This document shows positions 5,147-48,724 of a DNA stretch of 64,000 nucleotides, in pieces. Origin of the DNA: Carpediemonas membranifera BICM (Eukaryota > Protista > Fornicata); the NCBI GenBank assembly GCA_019828565.1, contig JAHDYR010000033.1, positions 155,827 to 219,826 of the forward strand, read 5' to 3'. Under the pieces are notes generated by a model, which was not told where the DNA came from, made no database searches, and saw only the letters and a list, made by a program, of their open reading frames with translations. A program made the translations under genes and the position numbers. How positions within the stretch are numbered: the first letter of the stretch is position 1; every line of letters begins with the position of its first letter.

Positions 5147-5284
5147 GAATTCTGCACGAAAAAATTCAGACGACGAATGATGGGCAAAGGGCCGCGAAAA
5201 CGCTGAAGTACCAGCGCAAGTAGAGCGGTTTGCAATAAAATAGCTTACTTGCGCTGGTGCTGGCGTTTTCGGGGCCCTGAATTG

Positions 5285-5670
5285 CCCCGGGCGCTCTCCC
5301 GGGCTTCTCTCTCCCGCGCTCTTCTCCCCCGGACGCTCTCCCGGGCTTCTCTCTCCCGGGCGCTCTCCCGGGCTCCTCTCTCCCGGGCTCCTCTCTCCCG
5401 GGCGCTCTCCCGCGCTCCTCTCTCCCGGGCGCTCTCTCCCGGGCTCCTCTCTCCCGGGCGCTCTCCCGGGCTCCTCTCTCCCGGGCTCCTCTCTCCCGCG
5501 CTCTTCTCCCCCGGGCGCTCTCCCGGGCTCCTCTCTCCCGGGCTCTATCCTCCGGGGCTCCTCTCTCCCGGGCGCTCTCCCGGGCTCCTCTCCCCCGGGC
5601 GCTCTCCCGGGCTCCTCTCTCCCGGGCTCTATCCTCCGGGGCTCCTGTCCCCAGCGCTGTTTCCCAGGCG
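5285..5670. repeat. Minisatellite (gcgctctcccgg / gctcctctctcccgg), diverged inverted relative of the 4389-4921 array
   Basis: Reverse complement unit gagcgcccgggagagaggagccc resembles gggcgccagggatgagggagcca. Confidence 0.93.
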
Positions 5671-6141
5671 CTCTGCTCTCTCCAGCGTCCTCACTCGTAA
5701 ATGTACGTTGCTGTCTTGTCTGCTTGATCTGATTTCATTTAGTGTGCACTTTAGGGGATAATTTCATTGCAACGCCAAAATGGCGAGTTCAGGTTGTAGC
5801 AATGATCTGATGCGCGGAATGTACTAGAAAACATTGCAATTACAACGCAAAGCAGCGAAAAGCGGAGAAATCAACATCAATAACAACATCAACACCAAAA
5901 GAACAGTATCCCAAAGAATTGTGGGCGTTGCTGCGCCAAAGAGCAATAAATGACCACAAAGCATTCGCTTATGCACAATTAGCTGCCAGAAAGAACACTA
6001 CACCGTTACTTTGGATCATCCCAGTTCGCCGGAGATGACGCAGGTCCAGAACGCTGCCTTGGAGGGCTGGTGAAGCGGTTGTGTAGCGCTTACTCGCCTG
6101 GCCTTTGGGGCTCTCTCAACATCCTTCCAGACTACTGCATT

Positions 6142-6565
6142 GTCATTCACCGGAGGAGCAGGCCAGAGTCACTTGCCATCTGGCGCATCATGAGGAGATA
6201 TTGGAATGTGATGATGTGTTTATTGACTAAATGAGCTGGAATTAGGCGGGTTTGATGTTGCTTACATGTTCTGTGGCATGCCTGATGTCCAAAGATGTAT
6301 TTTGGCACAGTGATGTTGTTTAGTGTGCTCATTGCTGACCGCATAGTTATCTGACTTCAATGTGTCGTGTTGATGCCAAGAAATCGATGGTAGCTCGCAC
6401 GTTTGAGGTAGTTGCTTGTTGCATCGATGCAACGCACTTTAAGGATTAAAAAGCTGTACCCCATAGCCGTTTCCTAAGGCCAAATGCGGCCCTCTCTAGC
6501 GTATATACACGCGTGAATTGGGACTAGATGGGACTAGATGGGACTAGATGCAGTGTTGTGGCATG
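6142..6565 (+). repeat. Direct copy of 11833-12246
   Basis: Near-identical sequence; gggactagat x3 here versus x2 at about 12211. Confidence 0.95.
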
Positions 6566-6759
6566 CCCGGTTTAGCTGAATCCACAAATGTGGATCGGCT
6601 CGGGCTGCCGTATAGGTGGCCATGCTTTGAACTTATGGCTGGAGACTGATACAATTGGCAGGTAGTTGACTGCTACGGACGTGCTATGGACAACCGACGG
6701 TATGCCTGTCTGGGCATCAGCGCTGTCGTTCAGGCCAATCCACGTTTGTGGATCCGTGC

Positions 6760-6963
6760 AGTTTATGGTTTCTCGGCCTCCATGCAACAGCCCTGCCTCA
6801 CCATCGGTATCGACGTGTACTGCGGCAAGAACAGCTTCACCCAGGGCGAGGATAACGTCCGCCAGGGTCAGCGCCGCTCCGTCATCGGTATGTCCGCCTG
6901 GTACGTCGAAGAGCAGGGCCACCTTGAGACCGTCAACCGTCCCGTCGAGACCATCGCCCGCTT
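6760..6963 (+). pseudogene. Fragment of an Argonaute/Piwi gene (start of the PIWI RNase H domain)
   Basis: QPCLTIGIDVYCG...RRSVIGMSA matches the PIWI motif P..hhhGhDV.H....SV.Gh.A; strongly C/G-ending codons unlike flanks. Confidence 0.7.
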
Positions 6964-7413
6964 GGCGAGTAAGCGCTACACTACCGCTTCACCAGCCCTC
7001 CAAGGCAGCGTTCTGGACCTGCGTCATCTCCGGCGAACTGGAATGATCCAAAGTAACGGTGTAGTGTTCTTTCTGGCAGCTAATTGTGCATAAGCGAATG
7101 CTTTGTGGTCATTTATTGCTCTTTGGCGCAGCAACGCCCACAACTCTTTGGGATACTGTTCTTTTGGTGTTGATGTTGTTATTGATGTTGATTTCTCCGC
7201 TTTTCGCTGCTTTGCGTTGTAATTGCAATGTTTTCTAGTACATTCCGCGCATCAGATCATTGCTACAACCTGAACTCGCCATTTTGGCGTTGCAATGAAA
7301 CTATCCCCTAAAGTGCACACTAAATGAAATCAGATCAATTTGTGGTCAGCTGCGCCAAGTCGATGGCTTAGTCAGTGTTTGAGTCATTCCCACGACTTAT
7401 TTACTTCGTTCAT

Positions 7414-8730
7414 TTACTTCTGGTGCTTTTCCTGCTCTCTCTTCTCCATCAGGTCGTCATACTCGGCCCTCGTCAGCCTCACAGTTGTCATCCCGGCATC
7501 ACGGATGTGCTCAAAGGCCTCAACAGGCAGCTTCGGCATCCCGTCGTCGCTGTCGCTGCTGCTGCCCAAGTCTGACTCGCTCTCGTGATAGCGGCGAAGG
7601 TGAATGCGTCTGCTGGGCTCCCTGGTCTTCATAGAGTCATAGAGCGGAGCGAGCCCACTTCCATTGGTCCCGCTACGGACACCCTCATCGGTATCTCTCT
7701 CAGACATATCACACTCAACCTGTTGTGACTGAACAAATGACAGGTTGTCGACGAGGCTATCCTCGACATCGCTGTCTGAACTCTCCTCATCCTCCCACTC
7801 TCCTTCCAGCATCTCCAACCCGGCCTCATCGTCAGACTCCCCCTCCCCCGTGTCGTCCCCCTCGGGCTTACGCTGGTCGTGGAGCTGGACCATCCTAATC
7901 CTGAGCTTGTTGTAAAGCCAGTCATCGAGCGTCGGCGGCACCAGGTCGGCAGAGCTTCGGATCTCCGGGTTGAGATCGAGGATCGTTGGGCGTCGCGTGG
8001 TCGTTAAGTGACTGGACGCCAACTGGCGCCTGAACTGCTCATCGGTCAGGCTGATGCGCTTGTCCTTAATGACCTTACGAACCTTGGTCGGATCCCTGGG
8101 CCTGCCCGTCCGTCTCTGTGTCTCAATCACCCGCTTCTTGAGCTGATTGAGATCGACATGCACAGTGGGCGCATAGCGAAGCTGGTTAACACTCAGCCCG
8201 ACCGACTTGAGAGCCTGCGAGAAGGTGCTAGGCATCACAGCGGACATCGCGGATGGTGCCCCGGTGAATAGCAACCAGTCAGCGAGTTCCGGGGGAATCT
8301 GGAGCTCGCTCACATCAATATCGCGGGCTGATGTGGCAGTCATGCCTGTGTGGCTGATGATAAGAGCCAGCGCATTGTAGGGGAAGACTAGTCGGACAAT
8401 AGCTTCCAATGCGACAGGCTCAAACTGCCCAAGCGGCTTGACATTGTCTCTGCCGGAGTTTCGGAATGAGTTGACGGCACTGAGAGTGACAGCAGCGGTT
8501 GCCTTGCTCAACGATGCAGCAAAACCGGGCACAAGCGATCTAACCTCCTCGGACCGGATCACGGAGAGCGCTTCGTCCTCGGTACTCCCTCGCTCACGTT
8601 GTACGAATTGAACGAACCGCGAAAGGTTGTTTGCGGCCGCTTTCCGGGAAGATTTCTTGCTGATGGTGCACAACCAAGCATTCTTCACGTCTTGCATGCT
8701 TGTTTCCATCTCCCGCGGGCTTCCTTCCAT
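7414..8730 (-). CDS. Degenerate tyrosine-recombinase-fold protein with AT-hook and acidic tail (unit 1)
   Basis: Core-binding-like helices (LSKATAAVTLSAVNSF), ALALIISHTGMT (box I, R missing), GLSVNQLRY (box II, H missing), RTGRPR AT-hook, D/E-rich C-terminus; paralogue of 36899-38260. Confidence 0.6.
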   Translation of the reverse strand: MEGSPREMETSMQDVKNAWLCTISKKSSRKAAANNLSRFVQFVQRERGSTEDEALSVIRSEEVRSLVPGFAASLSKATAAVTLSAVNSFRNSGRDNVKPLGQFEPVALEAIVRLVFPYNALALIISHTGMTATSARDIDVSELQIPPELADWLLFTGAPSAMSAVMPSTFSQALKSVGLSVNQLRYAPTVHVDLNQLKKRVIETQRRTGRPRDPTKVRKVIKDKRISLTDEQFRRQLASSHLTTTRRPTILDLNPEIRSSADLVPPTLDDWLYNKLRIRMVQLHDQRKPEGDDTGEGESDDEAGLEMLEGEWEDEESSDSDVEDSLVDNLSFVQSQQVECDMSERDTDEGVRSGTNGSGLAPLYDSMKTREPSRRIHLRRYHESESDLGSSSDSDDGMPKLPVEAFEHIRDAGMTTVRLTRAEYDDLMEKREQEKHQK

Positions 8731-8731
8731 C

Positions 8732-9061
8732 GATATACGGATTTCAGACTTTCGTCATGCACAAAAATTCGAATCTCTCCAAATGCCCAAAACAGTGGTC
8801 AAACCGTGTTCAGGGGTACAAAAGAGTGCCATAGGCACGTTCTTGCATTTCAAAATATTCTAGAGGTCGTTCATAAATTCTCAGATGGCCAACAGTACGA
8901 AAGTCTGAAATCCATTTATCATGAGACCCGACAAATTTGAAATCCATTTATCGGGTGGATACATCACTGTAGAGGGTATTCATGGATATAGGTGCCTTTT
9001 CGGTGCCGAGGGGAGTCAACATTTGAGGTCGTGCAGGCAGAAAGTCTGAAATCCGTATATC
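8732..9061. promoter_or_regulatory. Operator-like repeats upstream of the unit-1 YR-like gene
   Basis: Perfect 22-bp inverted pair gatatacggatttcagactttc (8732-8753 / 9040-9061), extra copy at 8899, partial at 8938. Confidence 0.6.
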
Positions 9062-9185
9062 TCATCACTGCTTATAGATCCTGGCAGACAACGCCTTCCT
9101 GGCGACGTCTGGGGTGTAAGGATTCGCTTGCCTCTGTGTTGTCGCATCAGCTTCGCTGAAAACGGGTGAACTGACCCGCGCATTC

Positions 9186-9637
9186 GCGCACTTTACGCTC
9201 GCAACGAGATTGAAATGGCGAACTTAAGAATAGAAAGAATACTGGCGGCTTTAACGTAGTAGGCATGTGCACAACACTAAGAAACATCAGTTGGCGGGCG
9301 CAGAGCATCATTAAAGCAACAATTATCTCTAAACGACATCAAGTACCAAAAGTCCATCATGATCATACGATATGAACTATAAATGAACTACAGATCAGTA
9401 TATATGATTTGAGAGTACCAGGCATGGCCAAAATACCGCAATACTCGTCCTTTGATCCACGTGACCTCCATCTTGGTCGGTATCCAGAGAACCTCCGTCA
9501 GACGCTTGCAACGGAACATTTAGGGGGAGCATCCTGAATGGGGCCAGATTTGAGGGACCCTTGGTCTGACATGTCATGACCGAGTACTCTAGGGGCCTCC
9601 ACAGTGCGTCCCGAGGTACGTTAGAGCACCACAGACC
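9186..9637. promoter_or_regulatory. Conserved non-coding core, copy 1
   Basis: Homologous to 35987-36437 (inverted) and 46676-47080; 37 bp invariant at 9455-9491. Confidence 0.8.
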
Positions 9638-9964
9638 TTCCCCCAAAAGCTGACTCCTGGACCCCTTGGCCGGAGCTCGCCCGAAGCGTGCCTCGGCTTG
9701 AACTAACGGCAAGAGAGCATAAAATCAGCCCTTTCGAACCGTGTTTTATGCTCTGCTGCAGTTATAGAATTATTCAAAGGGCCCTCTCTTTGCGCTTTTT
9801 TCTGGTTCGTGGGACGAAGTAGGGACGGACAAAAAAGCAGATACGGAAGGTATTGGAGGTAATGAGGCCGCCTAGGTACATAGTTGCCATGTGGATGGTT
9901 TCAGTTTATTACTTTTGGCACTCTATGTCCATTTTTTTATGCTCTCTTGCTGATAGTGCCGAAC

Positions 9965-11717
9965 ATGGACTTGCTAAAGTGGATTGAGAGCGCTAGCAAG
10001 GAACAGTACGATGCGATATTGGCTGCATACACCAAGGCAACCACCAATCATGCCAAATGTGCTGTCCTTCGCGCGGTTTTGCTGGATGAACGGAAACTGC
10101 TCGATCTAGTCATCAGGAAGCGTTTGTAGTCATAGCAATGCTTATATAGGAATCAACCTGAACCATATCACCACGAAATTCCGCCTCACGAAGAACGAGA
10201 AGGAGGAGCTCCATGATAAGTTGAAGAAGCAGTTTATGGCACTCGCCGGACCAAGAAGTTCCAAGAAGCTCGGCGCGCTGGCGAAGTGGGTTGACGACAA
10301 CCAGGCTGATATCGTGTATAGCAAGGAGAAGCGCAAGGCGCGTAAGGCCATTATTGAGGCCATTGACGCCGAGGAGAAGGACAAGGGCAAGGGCAAGGCC
10401 GAGAGCGCTAAGAAAGAACCCGTCGACGATGAGAGTGGCGTGGACAGTGGTGAAGAGAGCGGCGTCGACGATTCTGAGTTGTGCGACAGTGAGAGTGAGG
10501 TGGACTTTGACAACGAGTCCGACGATGAGATTAGAGAACGCGCGATCAAGCGCCGGCGCGAGAGAAAGATCGCCCAGAAGCTCAAGGAGTGGGAGGACAA
10601 TAACGCTCGCAACTACGTCCTGTGGCATAGAGTCCAGAAGGAGGTGCACGGCGAGCTTCGCATTCGCGCCTCTCGAGAGTCAGCTTCGGTTGCTGGGGAC
10701 AACCACGTCGACGTCCAGTTCGACAGATACCTTCGCGTATCCAAGCTGCTCGAAATGAAGGACTGGATTCACAAAGACCTCCCATCTCTTCCGATGGAGG
10801 CACGAGTGCTCCATCACAAGGCGCAGAAGAGAGTACTCGAGCTGGAGGAGACCGTCACGAGGCTGCTGCAAGACGTGGGGTACGCAGCTGACATCTCCAT
10901 GGGTGCCAGCCCGACACCCGCGCCGTTTCGCCGCGACCTACCCCAGTCGGGCACACACCAAGCACGAACGAGTACCCCCCGCCGTACGGGGAAGAGCGAC
11001 ACAATCCACATGAAGCGCAAGGCCCTCATGACAATCCCTCAGAAGATCGCTGATGTCGATAGCAACTCAGAGGAGTCAGACGAGGAGGAGATGGTGACAG
11101 AGGAGAAGAAGCGCGAGGCACACGAGGAGGTGGTGACAGAGGAGAGGAAGGGTGAGTCACATGAGGAGGACGTGACCAAATGCGACGCCTGCATCCAGAC
11201 TGAGCCGGAGACTCAGACTCGCATCACCTCTGAGGCCGCGGTGCAGACGTGCATCAACGCGGAGGCTCTCACGGCTGGCTGTACCGCGATTCATGTCAAG
11301 AGTGACGGCAACTGCGTTGCATATTGTCTCCAAGCCATTGAGTTGGGTGGCCGAGTTGATGGCGACTTCGAAAAGTGGCAGCGTGGCCTCTGCCAGTCAG
11401 TGAAGGCCAAGTACTGGTCTAAGAAGAATTTCACGGAGCGTAGCCTGACAGATCCGGACTCCGGCTACTATAACTCGAACGCCATCCGAGTCTGGGCGAG
11501 GAAACAGAAGCGGAACATCCTTGTTGTCCAGTCATACGACGGATACAACGGCATGCAAGGCATCTCCGCCATCTTATACCTGTTTGATGGCACCACCATG
11601 CTTGCACCCGATGCAGACTTGTGGGGGTTGACAGATAATTTCGCTATTGTCATCGAAGGCGATCCGGCTCACGCCACGCTGTACCAGAAGAAGTGCGAGG
11701 TCGTTGAGATTGAATAA
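9965..11717 (+). CDS. OTU-like cysteine protease/deubiquitinase with coiled-coil and acidic N-region (unit 1); intron 10122-10149
   Basis: VKSDGNCVAYCL and distal IVIEGDPAHATLY; removing the 28-nt GT..AG intron joins ORF 9965 to ORF 10221 in frame. Confidence 0.75.
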
Positions 11718-11832
11718 AGATTTGGATATGCCCGTGTAGCCAGCGGTTCATGACCTGCAGCAGACATTTGGACGTACAGCGGGATACCACATCAATTAGG
11801 TCACTTGCGGGCTAAGATTGTCGTTGTCGATC

Positions 11833-12758
11833 GTCATTCACCGGAGGAGCAGGCCAGAGTCACTTGCCATCTGGCGCATCATGAGGAGATATTGGAATGT
11901 GATGATGTGTTTATTGACTAAATGAGCTGGAATTAGGCGGGTTTGATGTTGCTTACATGTTCTGTGGCATGCCTGATGTCCAAAGATGTATTTTGGCACA
12001 GTGATGTTGTTTAGTGTGCTCATTGCTGACCGCATAGTTATCTGACTTCAATGTGTCGTGTTGATGGCAAGAAATCGATGGTAGCTCGCACGTTTGAGGT
12101 AGTTGCTTGTTGCATCGATGCAACGCACTTTAAGGATTAACCACCTGCACCCCATAGCCGTTTCCTAAGGCCAGATACGGTCCTCTGTAGCGTATATACA
12201 CGCGTGAATTGGGACTAGATGGGACTAGATGCAGTGTTGTGGCATGATCTGCCAGATCGACCAGCCCCTGGATCACTTGGGCCTGCCTCCGTGCCCGGCC
12301 TGTTGCGATCAATGATGGTGATTACTTGCAACGAACGCGATCACCGGAAATTACCTTACCTTACCTTACCTGCAGGTACCATGGGTGTTCGTTTTCGTCT
12401 CCAAACGCCATGGTGTAAGAGCATAAAGTGCATTTTCTGTTTACTGTGCCGTTGGGGATTGATGGCGCTGGCGTAGGGGTGCTGTGTGGGCGCCAGGGAT
12501 GACGGCGCCAGGATGAGGGCGCCAGGGATGAGGAGTACAGTATTTGAACCCCGAAAACGCCATATTACCAGCACCAATGAGCTTCATCAACGAAGATGCG
12601 CTCACTGGTGCCGGTTATGGCGTTTTCGGGGTTCGTCGATCATTCTGCTCCCAAATCTGCACCTGTATTTTCGTGAGCATGCCCGGGAGCTGGGCCAGAC
12701 GAGTGGTGCCACAGGGACTAAGCTCCGCTGCTCAGCCTCTGCCAGGCGACACTCGTCT
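11833..12758 (+). repeat. Unit-1 right-end block (short array plus hairpins)
   Basis: Duplicated in two pieces at 6142-6565 and 4146-5146. Confidence 0.9.
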
Positions 12759-12759
12759 C

Positions 12760-13287
12760 AATCATCTCAGCGACGTTGGCACCGTTGACTGACGAAGCTT
12801 GCATTGCACGCGTGGAGTCAACGGACATAGTGGGCTGCTCAGCGGTCTGAACAGTGGGGTGGGGGGTGGGGACGGCAGGATTGCGGCGCGGCTGGCACAC
12901 CCGGAAGGCTCTTTGGGAGCTGTCGAGCTTGGAATTTCGCAAATGATCAATTTCAGCGTCAGTGAGGGTTACAAGCTGGCTGAGTCCGGCTATCAATGCG
13001 GCACGCCCTGTATCTGTCGCGTGAATTCCTTGGTAGATGCCCTTCGTGTTAGGAGAGAGTTTGCGGCCAGCAAGGTTCTCGATAGCCTTGGGTACTGACC
13101 TCATGAAGTCCTACTTGCGCGGCATGCGCTCTAGAATAGTTTTTGGGAGGATTGCAAGGATTGCATCCGCGATGGAGCGACAATCGCATTTCGTGCTTCT
13201 CTCTTCCCAACGATAGCATGTTGCGATGATTGTGTGCACAATATCACGCACAGTATCTCTTGAAAGCCGCTCCTGGTCTTCTACCAT
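12760..13287 (-). pseudogene. Truncated gene, possibly N-terminal homologue of the PHD proteins at 39981 and 51000
   Basis: ATG 13287, one in-frame TAG near 13111, cut by the 12758 block; weak similarity RDIVHTIIATCY..CRSIADAIL versus RSFVTAVVSSVF..ARDIHKVL. Confidence 0.4.
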
Positions 13288-13341
13288 ACTGCCCCCCTTT
13301 TGTGGGGGTGTAAAAAAACTGAGTGCAGTTTTAAGTTGGAA

Positions 13342-14637: not shown

Positions 14638-14666
14638 ATCAGATTGTGACTCTCTCTGGGCGCCAT

Positions 14667-17600
14667 TTACTTGGCCCTTCCCAGGAATACATCCAGTGCT
14701 TCACAACCCTTGACATTCCCATATGGTTCCCATGTGTCCTCTGACGGCTCATATCCCAGCCATCTAACCCGGAACTTCCTGTCTCTCATCCTGGCCTCAC
14801 TCGTCGACTCTAGTATGGACTCGACCAGATATTCACCGAGCGTGACTGCCGCGAGTTCCTGAGCCCGTTGCTCGGACAACTCACCCATAAAGGCGCGAAC
14901 TCTCCGAGGCGACTTGGAACTCCTTCTTTGTGTTGACATCCTTGACGACATAGCCCACCGTGAGGTTCTGCCTCACGATAGGACGCACTAGCTTCATAGG
15001 CCCTCGCCATCCTGACGCCAACTTGGACGGCGGTCCATTCGGGTACTTGACCAACACATAGTCGGACGAGATAGGTGTCGTTGCTGACACTTTGTCTAGC
15101 GCATCTTGGTGCATGACCTTGATTCTCGCCTCTGCCAAGTCTCGGGCTAACTGAGCTGCTTGAACATTACTGCTGGGCTGTCCAGCCATACTCTGGACGT
15201 CTGCCATCATCACGTCTGCCGGGACACGGAAATCGCTACCGAAGATGACCTCGGCCGGTGTTAAGCGTGTCGCGGTGTGGGGAGACGCGTTGACGATATA
15301 CTGCGCGACAGGGAGGGAGTCTGACCACAACTCGCTCCGAAGCTGGTATTGCCTGTTGCGTAAAATGCGCTCAATGCGGCTGTTCGCCCGTTCCACAATG
15401 CCGTTTGACTGTGGATGGTACGGGGTGGTGACGTGAGTAGCAAACCCTACGCGCACCGATAGATCTGTGAATAGCTTGTTGACGAACTGCTTGCCACCGT
15501 CTGTCTGTAGAACTCTGGGCACGCCGTACCGGAGAATCCATCCGTTGACGAAGGCAGTCACAGCTTCGTCCGCCCTTGTGGACTTGAGTGGGACGAGCTC
15601 GGTCCACCGCGAGGCCATATCAATAATAACTAAGATGAACTTGTACCCGCGAGACTCTGGTAGGGGGCCAATAGTATCCATGGCTACCCACTGGAACGGT
15701 CGCAGGCTCGCCGTGTGGAGGTACGGTCTGGACGCCTCGGCCGGCTTGGCGGTAAGTTGGCACACGGGGCAACGATCCATGACCCGCGCTACCCTATCCA
15801 CTGGAGCCCGGAGCCCGTTAGATCTCAGCCACTCTACCGTCGTATAAACCGGGAGGTGGGCCTGGCCGTGCATATGAGCTGCCTGGATCTCGTCATCGGT
15901 AGCTGTTGCCTGTCTGGCAGTTGCGGAGAAGACTCGACTCAGCCCGTCCGCCGCTCCGTTGTCAACCCCGGCCACATGCTTCACTGTGAAGTCTAGGTCT
16001 GCGATTGACTCGTACCAACGCTGGACTTTTTGCGTTAGACGATCGTGACATGTAGACCAGGTTCCGGTGGTCAGTGAGGAGAGTAAACGACGTCCAGCAC
16101 AGGAAACGGCGCCACCTCTGGAGGGCGGTGACAATCGCATACGCTTCCTGTTCGATCGTGCTCCAACGCGTCTGCACATCTGAGAACGCGTGGGACATAT
16201 AACACACCGGCTTGCCGTCCTGGAGGAGAACACCCCCGATCCCGAGATCAGACGCGTCTGTCATGACCACATGATCCTTCGAAACGTCAAAGTGCTCGAG
16301 TGCCGGTGCGTGGCAGAGGCGGTCCTTAACCTTGGCCAGCGCCTCTGCCTGAGGTAATCCGTCCGGAGCCTCCTTGCCGCTTGCCGCCCGGGCTAACGGT
16401 CGGATAAGCTCGGAGAAGTTAGGAACAAAGTCTCTCATAAAGTTGAGGAATCCCATAAGGGCCTGCGTGGCCTTCTTCGTCTTCGGTAGCCGCAGGCCTT
16501 CTACATCGCGGATCCTGTCTGGAGCAATCCGGAAACCCGAGCCGGACACAACCCATCCTAGGAACTCCACTTCGGCTAGGCCGAAATGCGACTTCTCCTT
16601 GTTCAACGATAGCTTGAGCTCGTCACATCGGCGGAGCACCTTAGCGAGATTGGCCAGATATTCCTGCTCCGAGCGTCCAAAGATGATAATGTCATCTATA
16701 TATATAATGCAGGCGTCGCCTAAGAGGTCCTGGAACCCGCGCTCAATCGCGTACTGAAAGTGCGCGCCAGCGTTCTTCAGGCCGAACGGCATTCCGGTGT
16801 ATTGGAACTTCCCACGGGGGTCATAAACGCCGTGTATTGCCTAGAACGCTCGGTCAGCTCGACCTGGTGATACCCTTTCGAGAGGTCGAGAGTGGCGAAG
16901 ACCTTGGCACCAGCAAGCCTGGTCAAGCACGTGTTAACCTCGGGGATCGGATAGTCGAATGGCGTGGTCAAATCATTGATTCTGCGGAAGTCTACGACCA
17001 TCCTGGTCTTGTCCTTGCCCTTGGGGACGAGCAATGCTGGAGAAGAGTATGGCGAGAAGCTGGCCTCGATGTATTTCTTCGACAGTAGTTCGTTGACGTG
17101 CTCGTCGAACAGGCCCTGCTTCTGGTACGGTATGTAATTGGATCTCGTGGCGACGACGCGGTCCTCCTTGAGTACGAGGTCGTATGGCTCTAATGCTGAG
17201 AACCCTTCTCGAGCATCAAAGCAATGAGCATAAGCTGCGAGGATGCGGTCATGAGTGAGAGTGTAGTCCGAAGACAGAGTATACGCCTGGAGCGGCTCAG
17301 GCTCTGGCACGAAAGGCTCCAAGGCGTCTTCATTGTCAGACTGAGACGGTTCACACAAGCTGGGGAGAATACCCCACTCGACCATGGTCTGATATGACAA
17401 GAGGAGATCATAAGCACAGTCAACCCCATACGCGGAGACTGTGGTGGATAGACCTTTCGGGGTGAAAGGTGACTTACACATCTTCAACGGCACCTCATAA
17501 CACGTATCAGTCTCGATCGTTCCACCCGGAGTCTTGATCTTAATGGGTGCAGCGAGCTTCGTCGGAATGAGCTCGGCCGCTCTGGCGGAAGCCGGGTTGA

Positions 17601-21003: not shown

Positions 21004-21143
21004 GACGTGTGCTGTTGATGTTGTTTGATGAAGAAAGAAGAGAAGAAGAGGAAAAGTGATTGCAATCACGAGGATAATGATAATGAACGCAAATGATCAC
21101 CTAAGAGAGAGAGAGAGAGCGTGAACTCGCCGAAACGAACTAA

Positions 21144-28132: not shown

Positions 28133-28136
28133 TTGG

Positions 28137-34019: not shown

Positions 34020-34045
34020 GTAGGACTTGAGATATGAGTCAAGGG

Positions 34046-35986: not shown

Positions 35987-36437
35987 GTCTGTGGTGCTAT
36001 AACGTACCTCGGGACGCACTGTGGAGGCCCCTAGAGTACTCGGTCATGGCATGTCAGACCAAGGGTGCCTCAAATCTGGCCCCATTCAGGATGCACCCCC
36101 TAAATGTTCCGTTGCAAGCGTCTGACGGGCGTTCTCTGGATACCGACCAAGATGGAGGTCACGTGGATGAACGGACGATAATTACGGTATTCTGGCCATG
36201 CCTGGTACTCTCAAATCATCTGTACTGCTCTATGCTCCATTTATAGTTCATATCGTTTCGTCCTGATGGACTTTTGGTACTTGATGTTGTTTAGAGATAA
36301 TTGTTGCTTTAATGATGCTCTGCGCCCGCATACTGATGTTTCTTAGTGATATGTGCATGCCTGTATCGTTAAAGCCGCCAGTATTCTTTCTATTCTTAAG
36401 TTCGCCATTTCAGTCTCGTTGCGAGCATAAAGTGCAC
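35987..36437. promoter_or_regulatory. Conserved non-coding core, copy 2 (inverted)
   Basis: Reverse complement of 9186-9637; invariant 37-mer at 36132-36168. Confidence 0.8.
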
Positions 36438-36898
36438 ATTGTGAAAGGAAAGTGGGTGGTTATCTAATGGATACAGGGCAGGACAAGGCACACAAATGCC
36501 GTCCTGAGGTTTGGCATGGGATACTGATCTCATACGACAAAAATGGGCGGTGGTATTCGAATTTCAGAATTTCGGCATGTCCGAATTCCGAGGCAAGCGG
36601 GTAGGGTGTACAAAACCTGGCCTGGGTCCCTACTGGAGCTAATAGATAACAGTATCACCGTGTATTCGTATTCAGAAATATAACTTGTGTTGGTATTGCT
36701 ATTTCAGAATTACTTCCAGTCCAGGAGATTGTCTTAGAATTTGGATGTTCATGACTACTTTAAAAATTTAAAAAGTTCCCATGAACCCACTCCAGCTCAG
36801 GATTGCGGATCTGAGCCAAGTTTAGGTCGAATCCAAGTATTTGATAATTTTGTATGTACGAAATTCTGAAATTGCAATACCAACAGAAAACTCGTGAT

Positions 36899-38260: not shown

Positions 38261-38760
38261 ATGGCGAGTGATTATCAACTGGATGCAGAGGCTGAGCGGC
38301 GTAACTAGCCTGCCAGGGTCCGTGTACACAGTATGTGTCTTGGCCAAGCTTGACTTCGTCGGTTGGCCGAAAAAGCATAAACTGCACGGGTCCAGGTCGG
38401 CAACGGTTGCCGACCTGGAAGCCGCTCCTTGGGCGTTGAAGAACAGAAGAGAAAGCGATCAGCGATGCTTTTATGCAGTATTAAGCAGGTTGTGCGCGTC
38501 AAATGTCCGGTAATGCATTCGTCACCATCTAATCAACATCAACTCTTTTTCTCGGCAATGCAGAGGAGAATGCCCGTCACTAAAGGATGATTTGGTACTG
38601 AATAAACATTATAATGAGACTGGAATGCTTGTGGACACGAAAACAGCAATGACAACATCGGGAGCAAGACAAGAAGATGATTCAGATTTATGAGGGAGAG
38701 GACGCCAGGGATGACGGCGCCAGGGATGAGGCGCCAGGATGAGGGCGCCAGGATTACCTT

Positions 38761-39695
38761 AAGCTCTGCCGACCTGGTGGCTTTACAAAAAGCTCAGGAT
38801 GAGGATGGTCCAGCTCCACGACCAGCGTAATCCCGATGGGGTCGACACAGGGGAGGGTGAGTCTGACGATGAGGCGCTGTTTGACGAGACAGCTGGCGAG
38901 GCAGAGATGCCGGAGACCGCAGTGGAGGGCGAGTTTGACGATGAGGCCGGGTTGGAGATGCTGGAAGGAGAGTGGGAGGATGAGGAGAGTTCAGACAGCG
39001 ATGCCGAGGATAGCCTCGTCGACAACCTGTCATTTGTTCAGTCACAACAGGTTGAGTGTGATATGTCTGAGAGAGATACCGATGAGGGTGTCCGTAGCGG
39101 GGCCAATGGAAGTGGGCTCGCTCCGCTCTATGACGCTATGAAGACCAGGGTGCCCAGCAGACGCATTCGCCTTCGCCGCTATCACGAGAGCGAGTCAGAC
39201 TTGGGCAGCAGCAGCGACAGCGAGGACGGGATGCCGAAGCTGCCCGTTGAGGCCTTTGAGCACATCCGTGATGCCGGGATGACAACTGTGAGGCTGACGA
39301 GGGCCGAGTATGACGACGTGATGGAGAAGAGAGAGCAGGAAAAGCACCAGAAGTAAATGGCGAGTGATTATCAACTGGATGCAGAGGCTGAGCGGCGTAA
39401 CTAGCCTGCCAGGGTCCGTGTACACAGTATGTGTCTTGGCCAAGCTTGACTTCGTCGGTTGGCCGAAAAAGCATAAACTGCACGGGTCCAGGTCGGCAAC
39501 CGTTGCCGACCTGGAAGCCGCTCCTTGGGCGTTGAAGAACAGAAGAGAAAGCGATCAGCGATGCTTTTATGCAGTATTAAGCAGGTTGTGCGCGTCAAAT
39601 GTCCGGTAATGCATTCGTCACCATCTAATCAACATCAACTCTTTTTCTCGGCAATGCAGAGGAGAATGCCCGTCACTAAAGGATGATTTGGTACT
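38761..39695 (+). repeat. Tandem duplication of the 3' part of the unit-2 YR-like gene and its downstream region (about 37646-38599)
   Basis: Near-identical sequence; duplicated ORFs in the ORF track. Confidence 0.95.
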
Positions 39696-39980
39696 AACAG
39701 GCTTTAATAAGCATGTCAAGCCTGTGATCACGATAACAGCCTTCAATAACTACATCAAGGCAATACATCAAGAAGATTGTTTAAAGAGACGGCGGGGAGC
39801 AAGATGCAGGGAGAGCGGCAGGGAAACGAAGGCATGGGGACAGGAGCCCGAGAAGAGCGCCTGGAGAACGGTGAGGAAGAACGGCGGGGAAGAGCAGCCG
39901 GGCGCATGGTACACACATCTGTCATCATGTGGCATCAACATTGCCACAGTGGTCAACTCAATAACAAGCAATGTCTTCAT

Positions 39981-41265: not shown

Positions 41266-41455
41266 TCCAGAGTAGATTTTCTACTAAAAATTGGCATTGT
41301 TACAACCAATCATTAACATTAATAGAGAAGGAGAATAAAGACTCACCAGCCCGCGGCCAATCGTGACTCAGGTTCGCATCAGACGTCGACAGAGACGAGT
41401 TAAACATGAGGCTGGGCAATTGTCTTCTGAGCTAATCCTTAACCTTTCAAAGAGG

Positions 41456-43980
41456 ATGCTAATACCGAAGTGGACGCTATTACACGGCACTATTTATGCT
41501 CCTCAAGAGGATACTGGCATCAACACCATTCTATGCAGCGTGTACCTTTCCATTGACTCAGATAACGTCAGCACACATCGGTTTCGTGTTTCCAAAGCTC
41601 CCCAACGCCGTGAGTTCGTCCAGGTTGTTCAAGAGTTGCTCAGTGCAGGATATATATGTCGCCAGGATGTTTCAAAGCAGCTGTACCCCTCTCCGACTGC
41701 CACATCTATCGCTGCGGAGAAGAGGAATCACACGACTTACCCAAGAGCCTACGTGAAGCATACATCCGCAGTTGACACTCTCGCAGCCGAGAATGAGTGT
41801 CTACGGAAGCGTCTGGCCGACACGGAGCGCCTGATTCAACTAACGAACCAGCTCAAGTCCATCACAAACGGATACAATGCCGTTAACGACGAGATCCGCA
41901 TAATGAACTCTCTTGCAGGTAGGCTTAACCTTGATATTGTGCGGATATCTCCTGTTACCTCGAAGATCAAGTCTCTCGCGTGTAATATCCAGAATATGGA
42001 GGAGATAGAATCACTTCTCCAATCTGACACCGCTTGGAGGAGATTTATCCGCAGTCACGTTCCCGCCAACATTCAGCACAGGGTAACGGCGAGAAGGTCT
42101 GATCAGGCCAATCAGGAATATGAGCTCGACCTCATCACCCATGTCGAAGCTCCTCTTGATGTTGTACGATCATCTATTCAGGGCGACTCGGCCCATGCAG
42201 AGCACGTTGCAGGAAAGATCGTCGTCTTCTATGACTCAGAGCAGGACCGTGAGACTCACTATAGCATCATGAAAGAGCAAGGCCTCACCCCTCGGATGCA
42301 GACGAGTGCAAGATATACCCATGTATATCATGCATCATTTGATATCATGGAGTATTATCGCCAAGCGGTTGCATTCCCCGTATCGCTGGAGACGTCACGA
42401 TCCGGGCGCAAGAGTGCAGCTCGGACATTAAGACGACAGAGTCATTCCGCTGAGACGGGGACGATCCCACTCGTGTTAGAGGTGTGGGTCGATGCGTGGA
42501 GAGGGCTGACAACCGCTGTTAAGATTCGTTTCCTCGACGACTCCCACAAAGTCTTTCCGTCTGGTGCGACTCCTCCTTTCCGGATTCTTGAATACAACGG
42601 CCCAGAAAGTCTCATCACTGAGCATTTTGCCTTCATTGAACAGTCCATCGAGAGCACACACCGCGAGGTGCTGGAAGTCAGGAACACGGGTCTCCTCTGC
42701 CGAGTAACGCGTGTCTTTATTATCGCTGACCATCCAGCCATGTCCAAGGTTTGCGGGGCACTCATTGGAGGCAATTACCCCTCGCCATTCAGTCCCGTTC
42801 ATTCGAAGAACAAGGGCTGGAGTCCCTTTGGTCGCACCCCGCGCTGCACCTTGGCAGATATCCTGCTGGCGAAGCATAAGTCACAGTTCGACACTATTAT
42901 GGACAGAGAGGCCAAATGGGGATCCTTCTATAACCATCAGAAGAAGTGCATCGCTCCCACTTTGTTTGAGACGTCGACTGCGTCGCTGCCCAGAGACTGC
43001 GTCTTCTTATTCCCTCCAATCATGCATGTCAGTCATGACTTTGTGTCGTTGATTCATGCCATGTGCCGCATGTTCAAGCCAGAGCCAATTGACCCAGAGA
43101 GCGACCCTCGTCAAATTAAGGAGGTGAAGGCAAGGAACGCGATGCTAGCGAATCTGGCGTCGTTTGAGCCACCCAGCCGTACGACGGGCTGCAACGAGCA
43201 AGTCAAGGGGAGAAAGATGATAGCATCGATTGGACTTAAGCTGCATCGTGCGTTCCCGCCACCCCCGTGCAGTCATTATTCATACTCGCTGCATACCTCC
43301 AGGAGCACTACTATTCCCACGAGGATGTAACTGAGAACATGGTCGTGTGGCATCGCTTGACAGCACTTCTCGTGCACCTCTTCTCTGTGACCATGTGTCT
43401 TAGCACATCTAACACGGTTGCCCCAGACATTCCGATCCGTCAACCATCTGCGACTCCCGATACGGCGCCGTGTGTTGATACACTTCACGGATTGGCGCGT
43501 ATTGCCGCGCTGCCGGATATACAAGCGAAGACTCGGGCTTCCTTTGGTCGAGTCATCGAAGAGTGCTTTGAACGTGATTTCATTGGGAATCAGGAGAGTC
43601 GAGTGCGATTGCGTCAGAACCAGACGGTTCTTGAGAGCACTATTCTGAAGGAGCAGGTTGAGTTGCTGTTCAGATGCCTTCGTGGAGTGATTTCCTACGG
43701 AAGACGCGAAACAGATGTCCCACCCCAGTCACCCCTGAAACATATGCGCATTCATAAGTGTTGTAAGGATGCCAATTGGTGGCTTCGTATCCGGAGTGTG
43801 CATTCTAAGACGCTGACAGCGACTGAGTGCCAAAAGCTGCACATGGTGTTTACGAAGGAAGTCAACGGCCTATGGCGCACTGTCTTGTCGAAAGCAGACT
43901 GTACCTTTGACTCAGACTGGCTGTATGTTCCCATTCACGAGCAGGGACACACTCTTGATGTTTGCATATGTAAGAGATAG
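41456..43980 (+). CDS. Candidate DDE transposase (Transib/RAG1/Chapaev/CMC-like), one frameshift near 43262
   Basis: Ordered motifs LEVWVDAW (D1), FIIADHPAMSKVCG..GGNYPSPF (D2 plus degenerate CxxC), PPIMHV, IEECFER (E). Confidence 0.6.
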
Positions 43981-44391: not shown

Positions 44392-45130
44392 GCTAAATGC
44401 TGTGTTTTGGACAATTGGTCGTGTTCAGGCAGATTTTTTTCGTGCAAAGTGCAGGCTAATACGCGCCCTTAAACTGTGGGATCAGCCGCTGGGTAAATAT
44501 ACTGAGAAAAAACCATATAGCTGAGTTCACTGTCTTGTGCTGAATACGGTGGCGCCATTTATTTCTCTGAATCGCTAAGTTTTGTCAGCGTTGACCGCGC
44601 ACGACCGGTCGTCCTTACGCGATGTCACCAACACCATCATATTCTTCCCCCTGATATTCTACGTGTCCCCCAGTCTGGATTCGTGGTCTGCAATATTCAC
44701 AGAGATATTCGCCTTCTCTTTCGCGAATTTGACTCTGATCAAGTCGAAAACCGAAAAAACGACCATATCTCGAAATCTACACGTTGGAATCGGTACCAGA
44801 GTGATTTTGCGCATATGTACATCCCGTCAGCAGTCTGCAAAATCACTCTCATACCGATTCCAACGTGTCAATTTTGAGATATTGCTCGTTTCATCGTTTT
44901 GCCTTAACCTGCGTCGCAAAGAAGTCGAAATCAGTGCTTAGACCGCACTGGACCTCTTTACAGGCTCTCTGCATACGCGCTTTAGTATGCAATGAAGGTA
45001 TTCATTTTCCCGTAAATTGTTTAAATTCAATGAATACTTCATTTTCGGTCCGGAAGAAATAGATAATCTAGGTTTTTTAGGCCCTAGATTATCTAGAAAA
45101 AATCGTAGATTATCTACCGACTTTCACAGT

Positions 45131-45954
45131 ATGAGAGGAGTTGATGACATCGATCATCGCTTCTTCATGTTTGTTCACCCAGTGTTGCCCAGGTATTTAC
45201 CCAGATTGGTTGCGATTCGTGACTGCAAGACTGATTCCATCATTTCGGCCTTGTTGCTCACGAAGGAGTCATACAACACCGAAGCTACTGATGAAACCCC
45301 TTCCGAGCTGCGCCAGGACTTATATGTTGTGGTTATTCGCACGGCATTCTATGCCAGGGGCAATGGTCTCGCCACGATTCTTCTTTCGGTTGCCTCTGCC
45401 GGACAGAGGATCCGCCTGCAGTGTGTAAGTTCTCTTGTGCCAGCCTACCAGCGTATGGGGATGTCCATCTCCAAGCAAAAAGTCCACGATGGAGTACCTG
45501 GATGATGCGAAACTGGTGACCATGGAGGCAACATACGGCCCGAACAAGTGGACGAAGCTCGGTGAGAGTCTCGTTGCTTGCCATGGATATGCCATGAAGT
45601 CCTGGAGGGCTCCCCCGTCCGTCGACTACGGTACGGCTTTTCACTTCTGTGGACCAGGTCCAGCCTCCCCCAAAGAGAACCCAAGCCACCCAACCCACCC
45701 TGCCCACCAAGCCCTCGGACAAGCTCAACCGCTACATTAAGCGTCTGAGGAAGAGTGTTACCCCGCACCCGACGCGCAAGAAGCAACGTGAGATAATCAT
45801 CGCCCTTTACGACAGCAACCGAAGGGATTTGGTCCAAAAGATCGTGGATAAGAGATCAAAGATGCGTAAGGATTACCAGAAAGAGAACTATTTCGAGGAA
45901 GAGTGGTACCATCTGCTGTCTGAGAAGGAAGATGAGGAAGAGAATGAAGATTAA
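45131..45954 (+). CDS. GNAT acetyltransferase with basic/acidic C-terminus (two frameshifts)
   Basis: LYVVVIRTAFYARGNGLATILL (motif A R..G.A), LVPAYQRMGM (motif B). Confidence 0.75.
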
Positions 45955-45974
45955 ATGAAGAAGCAGTCGATTTA

Positions 45975-46661
45975 TTACTCATTTGAGTTGACGTTAGCTG
46001 CGTGGAAGAGCAGGAGGCTCGCGTAAACGGGTATACGCAGAACATCACGAGCCTCTGCAGCGGCACGGGCAGCGTTCCTCTTCTCAATCACAGCGGCGAG
46101 GTCCTTGAAGGTCTTCGAGTGCTTCTTGAGGACAAGCTGCGGACGCTCGAAGATGAGCTTAGAGTCCTTGCGGCACACACTCTCCAGAAGGACCTCTCTG
46201 ACCTTGTCGACAGAGATACCAAGCCTCTGGGCGACGAAGGCGTAAGCGCGGGGGCGGACCGACTGAGGGATGCCGTGGAACAGCTCGCGGTACTCACGGA
46301 CAGTTGCCAAGAGAGGGCTGCCATGGTCGACCTCATCTCCTTCGGCGTCCAGGCTGATGAGGGCCCTGAAGCGCTTCTCCTTGGCCTCAGAAGACTCGCC
46401 CTTGTACTGCGCCATGATCTGCTCAATGCTATCGAGAGAACGGAACTCCGCTTCATCCCTAAGATCCTCCGGAACGAATGTGGGGAGGTCATTGGGGCGT
46501 CTGTCAACCACCTCATTGCAAATGCGGTTTCCGGTGGCGACATCGGCAGCGGAGATGCTTCCAGCAGCGTGCTCCTTTTCTAAGTAAGTAGAAATCATTT
46601 CCACAGCGTTTAGACGCTTTCTGCCCTTGCTCTTAGCAGTATTACTCCGTTTCGGAGGCAT
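45975..46661 (-). CDS. Highly diverged positional homologue of the YR-like gene (unit 3)
   Basis: Same position relative to the core; AYAFVAQRLGISVDKVREV resembles ALALIISHTGMTATSARDI; LKKHSKTFKDL resembles LKSVGLSVNQL. Confidence 0.5.
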   Translation of the reverse strand: MPPKRSNTAKSKGRKRLNAVEMISTYLEKEHAAGSISAADVATGNRICNEVVDRRPNDLPTFVPEDLRDEAEFRSLDSIEQIMAQYKGESSEAKEKRFRALISLDAEGDEVDHGSPLLATVREYRELFHGIPQSVRPRAYAFVAQRLGISVDKVREVLLESVCRKDSKLIFERPQLVLKKHSKTFKDLAAVIEKRNAARAAAEARDVLRIPVYASLLLFHAANVNSNE

Positions 46662-46675
46662 AACGTTTCTTCAAG

Positions 46676-47080
46676 GTGCACTTTATGCTCGCAACGAAAT
46701 TAGAAAACCAAACGAAGAAAGGAGAAGAGTATCGATCCTCAAACGCTGGCAAGCATGTGTATATCACTAAAACAACATCATGAGAGCTCTGTGGCCTCGA
46801 ATGGCCTGTAATAGAACCTAAACAACATCAACAATTGTAACTCGTCGAGGAAGCGTTGAGATGAACTATAAACGCGGGAATGGATCAAACAATGGATTTA
46901 AGAGTGGCATACAAGGCCAGAATACCGCAATTATCGTCCGTTGATCCACGTGACCTCCATCTTGGTCGGTATCCAGAGAAAGCCCTTCAGACGCTCGCAA
47001 CACAACATTTAGAAGACTTATCGTGAATGGCTCCTTCCATGATGGACCTTCACCTGGACATGCCATCTCTGACATGTCCA
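46676..47080. promoter_or_regulatory. Conserved non-coding core, copy 3
   Basis: Starts gtgcactttatgctcgcaacg; invariant 37-mer at 46944-46980. Confidence 0.8.
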
Positions 47081-47190
47081 ATGGTCTCCATTGAGCTCGC
47101 ATTCATCCCTCTGAGCATCCGCCCCATGGTCCAATCAGATGCCCAATCAAAATTCTGCACCGAAGTGCCCCGAGGACCTCCTCTGAGTTC

Positions 47191-47355
47191 ATAAGGCTCT
47201 CAGAGCCTTATACACCAATTCGAAATCGTGTATAAGGCTCTCAGAGCCTAATGAATCTCCCGCGCCGTTGCCTACTGATACTGGTCATTTTTCCGCATGG
47301 TTTATTAGGCTCTCAGAGCCTTATGAATTTTTTCATTAGGTCCTGAGAGCCTTAT
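47191..47355. promoter_or_regulatory. Four copies of a 21-bp palindrome (ataaggctctcagagccttat)
   Basis: At 47191, 47232, 47304 and 47335 (last degenerate), ending 4 nt before ATG 47360. Confidence 0.75.
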
Positions 47356-47359
47356 AATC

Positions 47360-48724
47360 ATGCAATCGGTTTTCGACTTCTACATGCTCTTGAAGCGTTC
47401 GAAAACGTTTGGTAAGCAGTTCTTTATCTTCTATGACAGCGCTGAGATTAGTCAGGCCTCATCAAACGCGCAGGAGATGATCAAGTGCTCACTTCTTCGT
47501 AAGTTCCTTCTGCCCGATGACAAGATCCTCACCGCCCTTCTTCGTGATCGTAAGTACTTTCCCCATACCTTTTTACACAGATATTGGCTGGAAAACGCTT
47601 CGCAAGCTCTTCAGGTCGCCTCACCTTATCCTGCACCTAAGAGAAACTGCCGAGGCTCAGCTTGAGCTGATCACGACATCGGCTGAGCTGAAGAAGGTCA
47701 TGGGAGATCATGCCTACGACAGCCTTGTCCAGAAGGTCCGCCGAGAAGTGTCTTCGGATCACGAGCACGACGTTGGAGGTAAGTACTCCAAATAACTCCT
47801 GCTTATTCAGTCCTTTCGCTGCTCCGTGAGCGCATAATGCGCAAGGTGAAGCCAGGAAGGTCGGGGGTCGTCCGTTCGTTCAAGAACAACGCCGAGCCTG
47901 AGCTGTCGGACCCGGTCGACGTGCAGTTCGACCGGATAAGGCACCTGGACGCGCTTCTGATGGACTCTCCCGTCCACAGAAGTACCCTGAGTGGCACATC
48001 GCGCCTCCTGCGCCGCCATCTTGCCGTGGAACACAACGGTGCGATCCGTGATTTGAAGAGGGAGCTTTGGCAAGCCCGGGCCAAGATTGAAAAGCTCGAG
48101 ACGGAGAAGCTTGTGCCCTTGAAGAAGGAGGCTGAGGTCATAGACCTGGATCGGGAGGCTTTGGTGGCCGCAGACCCCAAAGATGACGTCCAGACCATCA
48201 TGGAGAAGACCGCTAAGAAGTTTAAGAACGATACAAGCTCTCTGAAGCGGTCTGAGGTGCCTGGGGATGGCTCATGCATTCTCAGCGCCATGCATCTCAT
48301 CAGGACTGGGTCCCAGCCTACTGTTGGTGAGAAGCTTCAGCTGTACGAGGACATCCGATCCTTCTGTGAGGGCAAGGGGTTCGAGGGCGACCCGTTCTCT
48401 GAGATGCCTGGCTCCCCTTTCCCCTGGGCAGACCATGAGGCCATCCAGGCCAGTGTAGAGCTGAGTCACACTCCGGTAATCATCACCCAGATCGACGAGG
48501 ACCTTACCTGCCTCTGGGTCCACAAAGGTTGGGAAGATTCAGAGTTCTTGCCCATCCAGGATGCGACGCTGGACAAGATCTTAGGTCTTTGTGAGAGCAT
48601 GAAGCTCACTCAGTTCATCGTCATCGAGAATCGTCATGCCTGTGTCTACAGTCTTCCGGACCGCAAGCGCAAGGCAGAGCCCGAGAAGCGTGCTACTCGT
48701 CCGGAGGATGTCACCCGCTCATAA
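47360..48724 (+). CDS. OTU-like protease (unit 3); introns 47550-47580 and 47779-47810
   Basis: Splicing two GTAAGT..CAG introns joins three ORFs in frame; VDVQFDR shared with unit 1; VPGDGSCILSA, W, IVIENRHACVY. Confidence 0.8.

Follow-up and report, generated by a model that had tools for sequence, protein, structure and literature searches.

We analyzed a 64,000-nucleotide (nt) stretch of the genome of the free-living protist Carpediemonas membranifera BICM (GenBank assembly GCA_019828565.1, contig JAHDYR010000033.1, positions 155,827 to 219,826, forward strand), referred to here as the window, in which a two-gene module occurs three times. In each of the three units, a left gene (L) and a right gene (R) diverge from a conserved core. 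An earlier, sequence-only reading of this DNA had described three copies of a degenerate tyrosine recombinase (YR)-fold gene paired with an OTU protease gene and had interpreted them as an old family of selfish elements or integrated episomes. The cores, the gene order, a shared intron, the YR fold of units 1 and 2, and the OTU-like domain of all three units were borne out, and the module proved to be dispersed. The YR assignment for unit 3 was not borne out, the strong divergence of the proteins held only in part, and a captured host segment and extensive mosaicism had been missed. The principal features, in window positions, are as follows.

5151 to 12762, no strand: unit 1 (apparent extent), with a tandem-repeat array and a hairpin with related arms at both ends
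7414 to 8730, minus strand: L1, 438 amino acids (aa), with a predicted YR-fold domain (aa ~10 to 200), an AT-hook-like motif, a host-derived segment, and an acidic tail
7873 to 8070, minus strand: captured segment, aa 221 to 286 of L1, with 45 of 66 residues identical to aa 289 to 354 of P0032 (J8273_2889)
9188 to 9636, no strand: core 1, probably noncoding, with an invariant 37-mer (9455 to 9491) and a conserved TATAAA-containing 12-mer
9965 to 11717, plus strand: R1, with an intron (10122 to 10149) and an OTU-like domain (~11226 to 11714)
34046 to 35777, minus strand: R2, with an intron (35611 to 35583) and a probable second intron (35156 to 35137)
35987 to 36435, inverted: core 2, 37-mer at 36132 to 36168 (minus strand)
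36899 to 38260, plus strand: L2, 453 aa, laid out as L1, captured segment at about 37532 to 37729
38778 to 39778, plus strand: partial copy, in tandem, of the L2 3' half together with the DNA downstream of it
38693 to 38752 and about 39810 to 39900: G-rich end-type repeats flanking the L2 duplicate
45975 to 46661, minus strand: L3, 228 aa, member of a separate multicopy family, no captured segment
46672 to 47090, no strand: core 3, 37-mer at 46944 to 46980
47360 to 48724, plus strand: R3, with introns (47550 to 47580 and 47779 to 47810) and an OTU-like domain

Core 1 and the inverted core 2 were identical at 413 of 449 positions without a gap, and positions 9406 to 9601 of core 1 matched positions 46895 to 47090 of core 3 at 145 of 196 positions. 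Identity dropped to 10 to 14 of 50 positions immediately beyond the core. The 37-mer, which the sequence-only reading had singled out as a kept word, is the longest word that the three cores have in common, and a 37-nt run was reproduced in only 9 of 100,000 column shuffles. Six-frame reading of the 449-bp core revealed stops in every frame; one minus frame was open across the 196-bp three-way block (pN/pS of 0.59), and a short open reading frame (ORF) may lie there. Most simply, the core would be a shared promoter, a binding site, or a recombination platform. A structured RNA was considered and rejected: the cores had no Rfam match, and of 42 folding windows, 39 gave z scores above -2; the remaining three scored -2.3 (unit 2) and -4.8 and -2.6 (right edge of unit 3 on the minus strand).

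A structural model of L1, built from three sequences, had a mean pLDDT of 68, with values of 82 to 94 over aa 11 to 90. In a search of 48,161 chains with this model, YR-family or YR-derived proteins made up all of the first 15 among the 50 matches listed, with Z scores of 6.1 to 8.5 and root mean square deviations of 2.6 to 4.1 Å (7.5 Å for 2kob). They included 3nrw (Z of 8.5), XerD (Z of 8.3), lambda Int, Cre, and Ndc10 (10th, Z of 6.9), along with MrpR and SroF (ranks 3 and 13); we take SroF, MrpR, and 2kob to be of YR origin. Residues 101 to 190 of L1 aligned with integrase catalytic cores (Z of 5.4), with a catalytic domain of only ~90 aa. The top three Foldseek matches were Xer recombinases, XerD and XerA first (E values of 0.09 to 0.34), and L2 scored 0.97 to integrase N-terminal clusters in the Atlas. 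A caution against this assignment is that VIA Z scores of 6 to 8.5 can be reached by chance with helical models. We nevertheless call the fold in L1 and L2 because the top matches were uniformly of the YR class, with backing from Foldseek and the Atlas. L1 and L2 are thus predicted to hold the four-helix core-binding fold of tyrosine recombinases.

Active YRs carry a catalytic Arg, a His-x-x-Arg motif, and a nucleophile Tyr. In L1 and L2, the box I Arg is replaced by Met/Trp, the box II His is replaced by Asn/Arg, and no Tyr is present at the expected position; the catalytic residues are lost in every L1/L2-type copy examined. Judged by these residues, the YR domain appears to be catalytically dead, in agreement with what the sequence-only reading had noticed, as are the AT-hook-like motif and acidic tail that we read in both proteins. 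L proteins showed no significant similarity to the DIRS YRs of the window and no match to GCR1_C or DUF3504.

L3 is different. Its hhalign probability against L1/L2 was 0.5%; 34 to 750 of 1,000 shuffles scored equally high in a separate comparison; the Atlas returned no feature hit, and the structural model had a pTM of 0.21. L3 is 34 to 35% identical to P0033/P0036, and its family has six cluster members. A three-sequence profile of the N-terminal part (46362 to 46661) matched histone H2B with E values of 0.08 to 0.24, the N-terminal 100 aa of L3 alone gave no H2B match, and the family's C-terminal half gave weak helix-turn-helix matches.

Behind the dead YR domain, directly and in frame, L1 and L2 carry a 66-residue segment that led outside the module. 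A profile of four left sequences, searched against 1.84 billion representatives, gave seven hits at an E value of ≤0.001. Six were members of the left family, and the seventh was a single-copy C. membranifera protein of 578 aa encoded outside the window, P0032 (J8273_2889; E value of 6.9e-15 over aa 280 to 346). Residues 289 to 354 of P0032 are identical to the left proteins at 44 to 45 of 65 to 66 positions (67 to 68%), and the flanking 10-residue windows match at 0 to 5 of 10 positions; similarity past aa 355 was not significant (46 and 106 of 2,000 acidic shuffles). The segment is 85 to 100% identical across 9 of 11 left proteins and is the single constant part of the left family. By sequence comparison, it derives from the host protein J8273_2889. 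Counting against the proposal made below, the segment is partly deleted in P0001, P0031 lacks it, and the near-identity of L1 and L2 DNA runs on from the segment into the tail, so recent conversion rather than selection may explain part of the constancy.

Residues 30 to 88 of P0032 matched Pfam Rad21_Rec8_N with an E value of 0.0096, the only family at an E value of ≤10. The segment lies at 50 to 61% of the length of P0032, as a basic, hydrophobic island in an acidic middle region, and is modeled (with low confidence) as two helices, aa 298 to 311 and 336 to 353. Phenylalanine 301 and L305 form an i/i+4 hydrophobic pair with the same spacing as human I337 and L341. By eye, we also judged P0032 to resemble kleisins in N-terminal, middle, and C-terminal (winged-helix) motifs. 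Yeast Scc1 (566 aa) binds Scc3 through sites at 319 to 327 and 349 to 393 (PMC4175184), and a helix at 383 to 392 of human Rad21 binds SA (PMC3709894). Human Scc1 281-420, which contains I337 and L341, forms a subcomplex with SA2; the same holds for the fragment fused to LacI, which, together with coexpressed SA2, brings Wapl to LacO arrays (PMC11331136). We consider that P0032 is likely, by these sequence features, a Rad21/Rec8 alpha-kleisin and that the captured segment is likely its Scc3/STAG-binding part.

Several results count against the kleisin assignment. The Rad21_Rec8_N hit scored 16.5 bits, below the cutoff of 23.1; human P356 has no counterpart at equal spacing in P0032; P0032 matched no PDB sequence at an E value of ≤10, a profile of the segment found no RAD21/Scc1 chain, and the C-terminal winged helix gave no Pfam hit. 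A single-sequence model of P0032 had a pLDDT of 42, and fold searches with it were uninformative. In addition, the published C. membranifera cohesin table lists Rad21 as J8273_2470 and 2448 and STAG as J8273_8643, with no Pds5 or Rec8, and J8273_2889 does not appear in that Rad21 inventory (PMC8516963). J8273_2889 is a candidate third Rad21/Rec8-type kleisin of this organism.

The right genes share a phase-1 intron of 28, 29, or 31 nt at one alignment column, as had been claimed, and removal of introns yields a long open frame in each. R1 is ordered as a helical N terminus, a coiled coil, an SP/TP-rich block, an acidic linker, and the OTU-like domain. The N termini of R1 and R2 are strongly similar (0 of 1,000 shuffles), and similarity to R3 is weaker (0, 4, and 23 of 1,000); the sole match in a search with the N terminus was ribosomal L31e (E value of 0.11). 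When five types of OTU-like domain were aligned, G-x-C and H-A were invariant, and each type was picked up by a profile built from the remaining four, with E values of 2e-6 to 1e-24 in a single comparison. Against the PDB, the OTU profile gave seven hits, of which the best was OTUD3 (E value of 0.016) and four others were viral L-protein fragments, which we take to be OTU domains. A D/H-G-x-C motif and a downstream His occur in OTU order: the Cys motif is present in 16 of 17 named copies and both elements are present in 15 of 17. UniRef labels two R copies as OTU. Pfam OTU was found in none of the five domains, and the best OTU support had an E value of 0.016, both of which are weaknesses of this assignment. 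We conclude from the sequences that the right proteins apparently end in an OTU-like domain with Cys and His present and that R is likely a ubiquitin protease. The domain of R2 ends ahead of the catalytic His, beside a long terminal repeat (LTR), and P0010 and P0021 are complete relatives. Every R type except R3 has a common block (~10890 to 11050 and ~34830 to 34960) that contains SP/TP sites and KRKAL; we take these to be CDK-site- and destruction-box-like, which hints at cell cycle control.

Named, near-identical proteins of the family, counted among annotated proteins within the length limits of the searches, comprise 10 L and 17 R copies spread over 15 C. membranifera scaffolds. L and R genes have consecutive locus tags (8043/8044, 6726/6727, and 8551/8552) for 3 of the 10 L proteins, a result seen in 1 of 100,000 random placements. 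A search with the L2 protein returned three clusters, all from C. membranifera and 80 to 96% identical. We found no relatives outside this organism in protein searches, none in metagenome contigs by protein or by a 22-nt core word, and none in viral contigs.

Divergence among the copies is patchy. The L1 and L2 proteins are 57% identical overall and 31% identical in the YR part, so the strong protein divergence claimed earlier holds for the YR part. It does not hold for the C-terminal half, over which the L1 and L2 DNA is 96 to 98% identical. Compared blockwise, the DNA of units 1 and 2 is 94 to 98% identical in the L 3' half, 42 to 47% identical in the YR part and spacer, 90 to 94% identical in the core, and 35 to 64% identical in R. 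In the left family, N termini of three types and tails of two types flank a single constant segment, the right family combines three N-terminal types with four OTU types in mixed combinations, and the pairing of L and R types is not strict. The module is thus a dispersed, recombining two-gene family, and its mosaicism favors recent exchange over old, independent divergence. That these are ordinary host genes in a plain segmental duplication is very improbable. Some neighbors (a PHD-type gene and the L3 family) do recur near other copies, and larger blocks may be duplicated; however, the copies occupy 15 scaffolds rather than this locus alone, blocks of 40% and 95% identity alternate inside one module, and the ends consist of a paired hairpin and array.

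The ends of unit 1 and the repeated motifs of the three units are as follows.

4146 to 5150, plus strand: second copy of the unit 1 right end, with a G-rich 14-mer array (4389 to 4921) and a hairpin (4934 to 5022)
5141 to 5173, no strand: candidate terminal tips, a perfect 11-bp inverted repeat with an 11-nt spacer, across the end-to-end junction
5192 to 5646, no strand: unit 1 left end, with a hairpin (5192 to 5274) and a C-rich tandem array (5285 to 5646)
5724 to 7338, no strand: insert within unit 1, with 375-bp inverted arms that are 99% identical
8739 to 9054: three copies of GGATTTCAGACTTT upstream of L1 (8739, plus; 8900, minus; 9041, minus), candidate binding sites
12246 to 12762, plus strand: unit 1 right end, with a short G-rich array (12488 to 12533) and a hairpin (12546 to 12634)
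36561 to 36872: three copies of a ATTTCAGAATT-type motif upstream of L2
47188 to 47356: four near-palindromic AGGCTCTCAGAGCCT sites from core 3 to R3 (seven strand matches at the four sites; 0.25 expected)

The second right-end copy is 98.5 to 98.6% identical to positions 12246 to 12762 and abuts the left end of unit 1, an arrangement suggestive of a tandem or circle-type junction. The right limit of unit 1 was set where the two end-block copies cease matching (5150 and 12762). The tip at 12753 is imperfect, and the left-end and right-end hairpins are 71% alike. The insert at 5724 to 7338 is likely a separate element; by eye, its inner frame recurs at the end of the truncated left copy P0031. 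All six occurrences of ATTTCAGA in the window sit in the L-side spacers of units 1 and 2, three in each, as parts of longer versions specific to each unit; 2.1 occurrences were expected, six were reached in 3 of 100 shuffles, and the pattern was picked after looking. Downstream of L1 and L2, a 30-nt motif is followed by a palindrome (6749 to 6778, 38365 to 38419, and 39461 to 39515). A hairpin with a C-rich stretch at 62977 to 63062, downstream of the minus-strand ORF at 63519 to 64000, is 77% like the unit 1 left end and may be where a further family member ends.

These ends bring in a different explanation, namely, that the module is cargo of a nonautonomous DNA transposon (Helentron-like or Pack-type), with L merely an element repressor and the segment a passenger spread by conversion. 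We regard this as unlikely. The unit ends bear short inverted tips along with hairpins and tandem arrays, the region of the L promoter overlaps with the repeated motifs, and MrpR and SroF, which we take to be YR folds turned DNA-binding repressors, stood high in the L1 fold search. HLE2 elements possess short terminal inverted repeats (TIRs), stem-loops, and OTU cargo (PMC11417382), and helitron-related genes are reported from the C. membranifera genome (PMC8516963). The module shows 11-bp inverted tips and hairpins (at one junction and one outer end), compared with TIRs of 12 to 16 nt and a 3' stem-loop in HLE2. On the other hand, the captured piece is in frame, limited to the 66-residue island, and retained with both tail types; a T|T insertion site was not seen at the junction, the arms suggest symmetrical ends, and no RepHel gene was present among the scanned ORFs of the window.

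Instead, we propose, at roughly even confidence, that the module is a selfish nonautonomous element whose left protein binds repeated DNA sites that the element itself carries and brings in STAG/cohesin, giving a partition system like that of the 2-micron plasmid. L would bind the repeated TTTCAGA-type motifs and perhaps also the core or the ends. If P0032 is an alpha-kleisin and the captured segment is its Scc3/STAG-binding part, L-bound STAG could tether copies of the element, putative excised or circular molecules among them, either to one another or to chromosomes bound by cohesin. Such tethering would resemble that of Rep1/Rep2-STB and would help inheritance and exchange between copies. 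R, as a putative cysteine isopeptidase, would shield these proteins or the local chromatin from ubiquitin-dependent removal. Movement would be supplied in trans, because neither an active recombinase nor a transposase is encoded in the module. The sequence-only reading had looked to ubiquitin marks; the captured host segment points to cohesin and not to ubiquitin marks alone.

Several findings sit poorly with this proposal. No mobilizing enzyme was found in the module; no target site duplication was seen at the one junction and one outer end of unit 1, nor did an empty site or a circular form come to light; and unit 3 pairs the core and R with a left gene that has neither YR domain nor segment, so a cohesin hook is not needed in every unit. 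No explanation offered here accounts for the left gene of unit 3.

The same parts could also form a poison-antidote or drive family, in which L disturbs cohesin as a STAG decoy, or R is a toxin, the partner rescues, and recombination generates incompatible types; Wolbachia cidA/cidB offers a comparison. We consider this improbable. Two linked genes, many dispersed copies, and combinatorial mosaics would suit it, a kleisin fragment on its own could titrate STAG, and diversification driven by recombination has been described for wtf drivers. However, a fold that binds DNA, together with upstream repeats that match it, suits action in cis; strict pairing of L and R types is lacking; and the organism is predicted to be haploid, with its sexual cycle unobserved (PMC8516963).

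Slightly less probable still is a domesticated chromosome function, in which an Ndc10-like protein would mark centromere-like sites or sites of cohesion or replication. The core contains a GTCACGTG word, which resembles CDEI, and the majority of the largest scaffolds observed carry copies. Ndc10, 10th in the L1 fold search with a Z of 6.9, is itself a dead YR fold (PMC3212892), and kinetochore components and ORC/Cdc6 have reportedly been widely lost in C. membranifera (PMC8516963). Against this, single scaffolds hold multiple sites (tags 8551/8552 and 8663; 7058 and 7187; 0003 and 0516), some copies are truncated or interrupted, each site has its own gene pair, and relatives were found in C. 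membranifera only.

Comparison with known systems places the proposed cohesin-anchoring element closest in design to the yeast 2-micron plasmid, in which two element proteins (Rep1 and Rep2) and a repeated cis site (STB) recruit cohesin (PMC2174020). The module differs in being chromosomal, intron containing, and mosaic and in lacking an active Flp-type recombinase, and its hook would be a captured kleisin piece. Ndc10/Cbf2 and the Crypton-derived genes (Gcr1 and DUF3504) likewise use a YR fold that has lost its catalytic site to bind DNA (PMC3212892); those are single-copy host genes, whereas the module is multicopy and has its own cis sites and a host-derived segment. CryptonF and CryptonS elements pair a YR gene with an accessory cysteine protease (C48) gene and end in only 4- to 6-bp direct repeats (PMC3212892). 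In contrast, the YR of the module is dead, its protease is OTU-like rather than Ulp1/C48, and its ends are hairpins, arrays, and inverted tips. Helentron/HLE2 elements share short inverted tips, stem-loops, OTU cargo, and gene capture (PMC11417382), whereas the module has no RepHel, bears hairpins at both ends, and showed no T|T site where its ends were seen. Phage MrpR (SPbeta) and SroF (phi3T), which share the YR fold, come from bacterial systems, are full-length folds, and have no eukaryotic host segment. The YR fold is shared by DIRS-type YR retrotransposons as well, and those in the window are a possible source of the YR domain or of trans activity; unlike DIRS, Ngaro, and VIPER, every unit lacks an RT/RNase H ORF (RT, reverse transcriptase). 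No unit has the pPolB and integrase of Polintons or the active captain YR ORF of Starships. The module thus failed the defining tests for Crypton, DIRS, Polinton, Starship, and a 2-micron episome, in keeping with the lack of fit to the first four that had been stated earlier.

We provisionally regard the module as a new kind of element, set apart by its failure to fit the known families tested. More specifically, and only tentatively, it may represent a selfish element of a class new to eukaryotes, in which a stolen kleisin STAG-binding segment, fused to a dead recombinase that reads the DNA of the element, makes private cohesin anchors, perhaps partitioning episomal copies, in an organism without many of the kinetochore and origin-licensing proteins. 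To our knowledge, a sequence-specific DNA-binding protein carrying its own kleisin segment is known solely as the laboratory construct LacI-Scc1 281-420. The literature searched, which left most subscription journals outside, described no such module, nor did bioRxiv 10.64898/2026.05.21.726589. If correct, this reading would add a natural new route to the hijacking of chromosome cohesion, another example, besides Ndc10, of a dead YR put to use in segregation, and a handle on chromosome organization and segregation in Carpediemonas.

Unit 3 lies in a tight gene block (44748 to 52627; gaps of 20 to 146 bp outside the core) flanked by two long imperfect hairpins. The block comprises an acetyltransferase-like frame (by eye), L3, R3, a SET domain gene (E value of 4.7e-11), an ORF with His/Cys motifs that we take to be caspase-like, and a Cys-rich PHD-like gene; together these may form a single larger element made up of chromatin modifiers. 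The PHD-like gene (51000 to 52223) is multicopy, with six cluster members and one sequence on four contigs, and copies lie 13 tags from L copies (0529/0516 and 4981/4994). Two overlapping ORFs at 41339 to 43980 had no Pfam or PDB support; their motifs are presumably DDE-transposase-like, and they are a possible mobilizer.

The window as a whole is a nest of mobile elements, with Gypsy-type RT/integrase ORFs, DIRS-type YR ORFs with RNase H-like neighbors, and tiny introns. Nested LTR elements of the Gypsy type, of which one has a chromodomain, occupy 14881 to 34021, with a tRNA gene at 28060 to 28132, and three mutually related DIRS-like YR ORFs lie at 26240 to 27813, 52612 to 54836, and 55764 to 58355. 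Two related hairpins (3999 to 4111 and 59434 to 59554) are 81% alike and have a common downstream tail. Finally, an ORF at 60302 to 60784, with a weak HEPN match (E value of 0.0015), lies between 274-bp direct repeats at 59735 to 60008 and 60966 to 61239.

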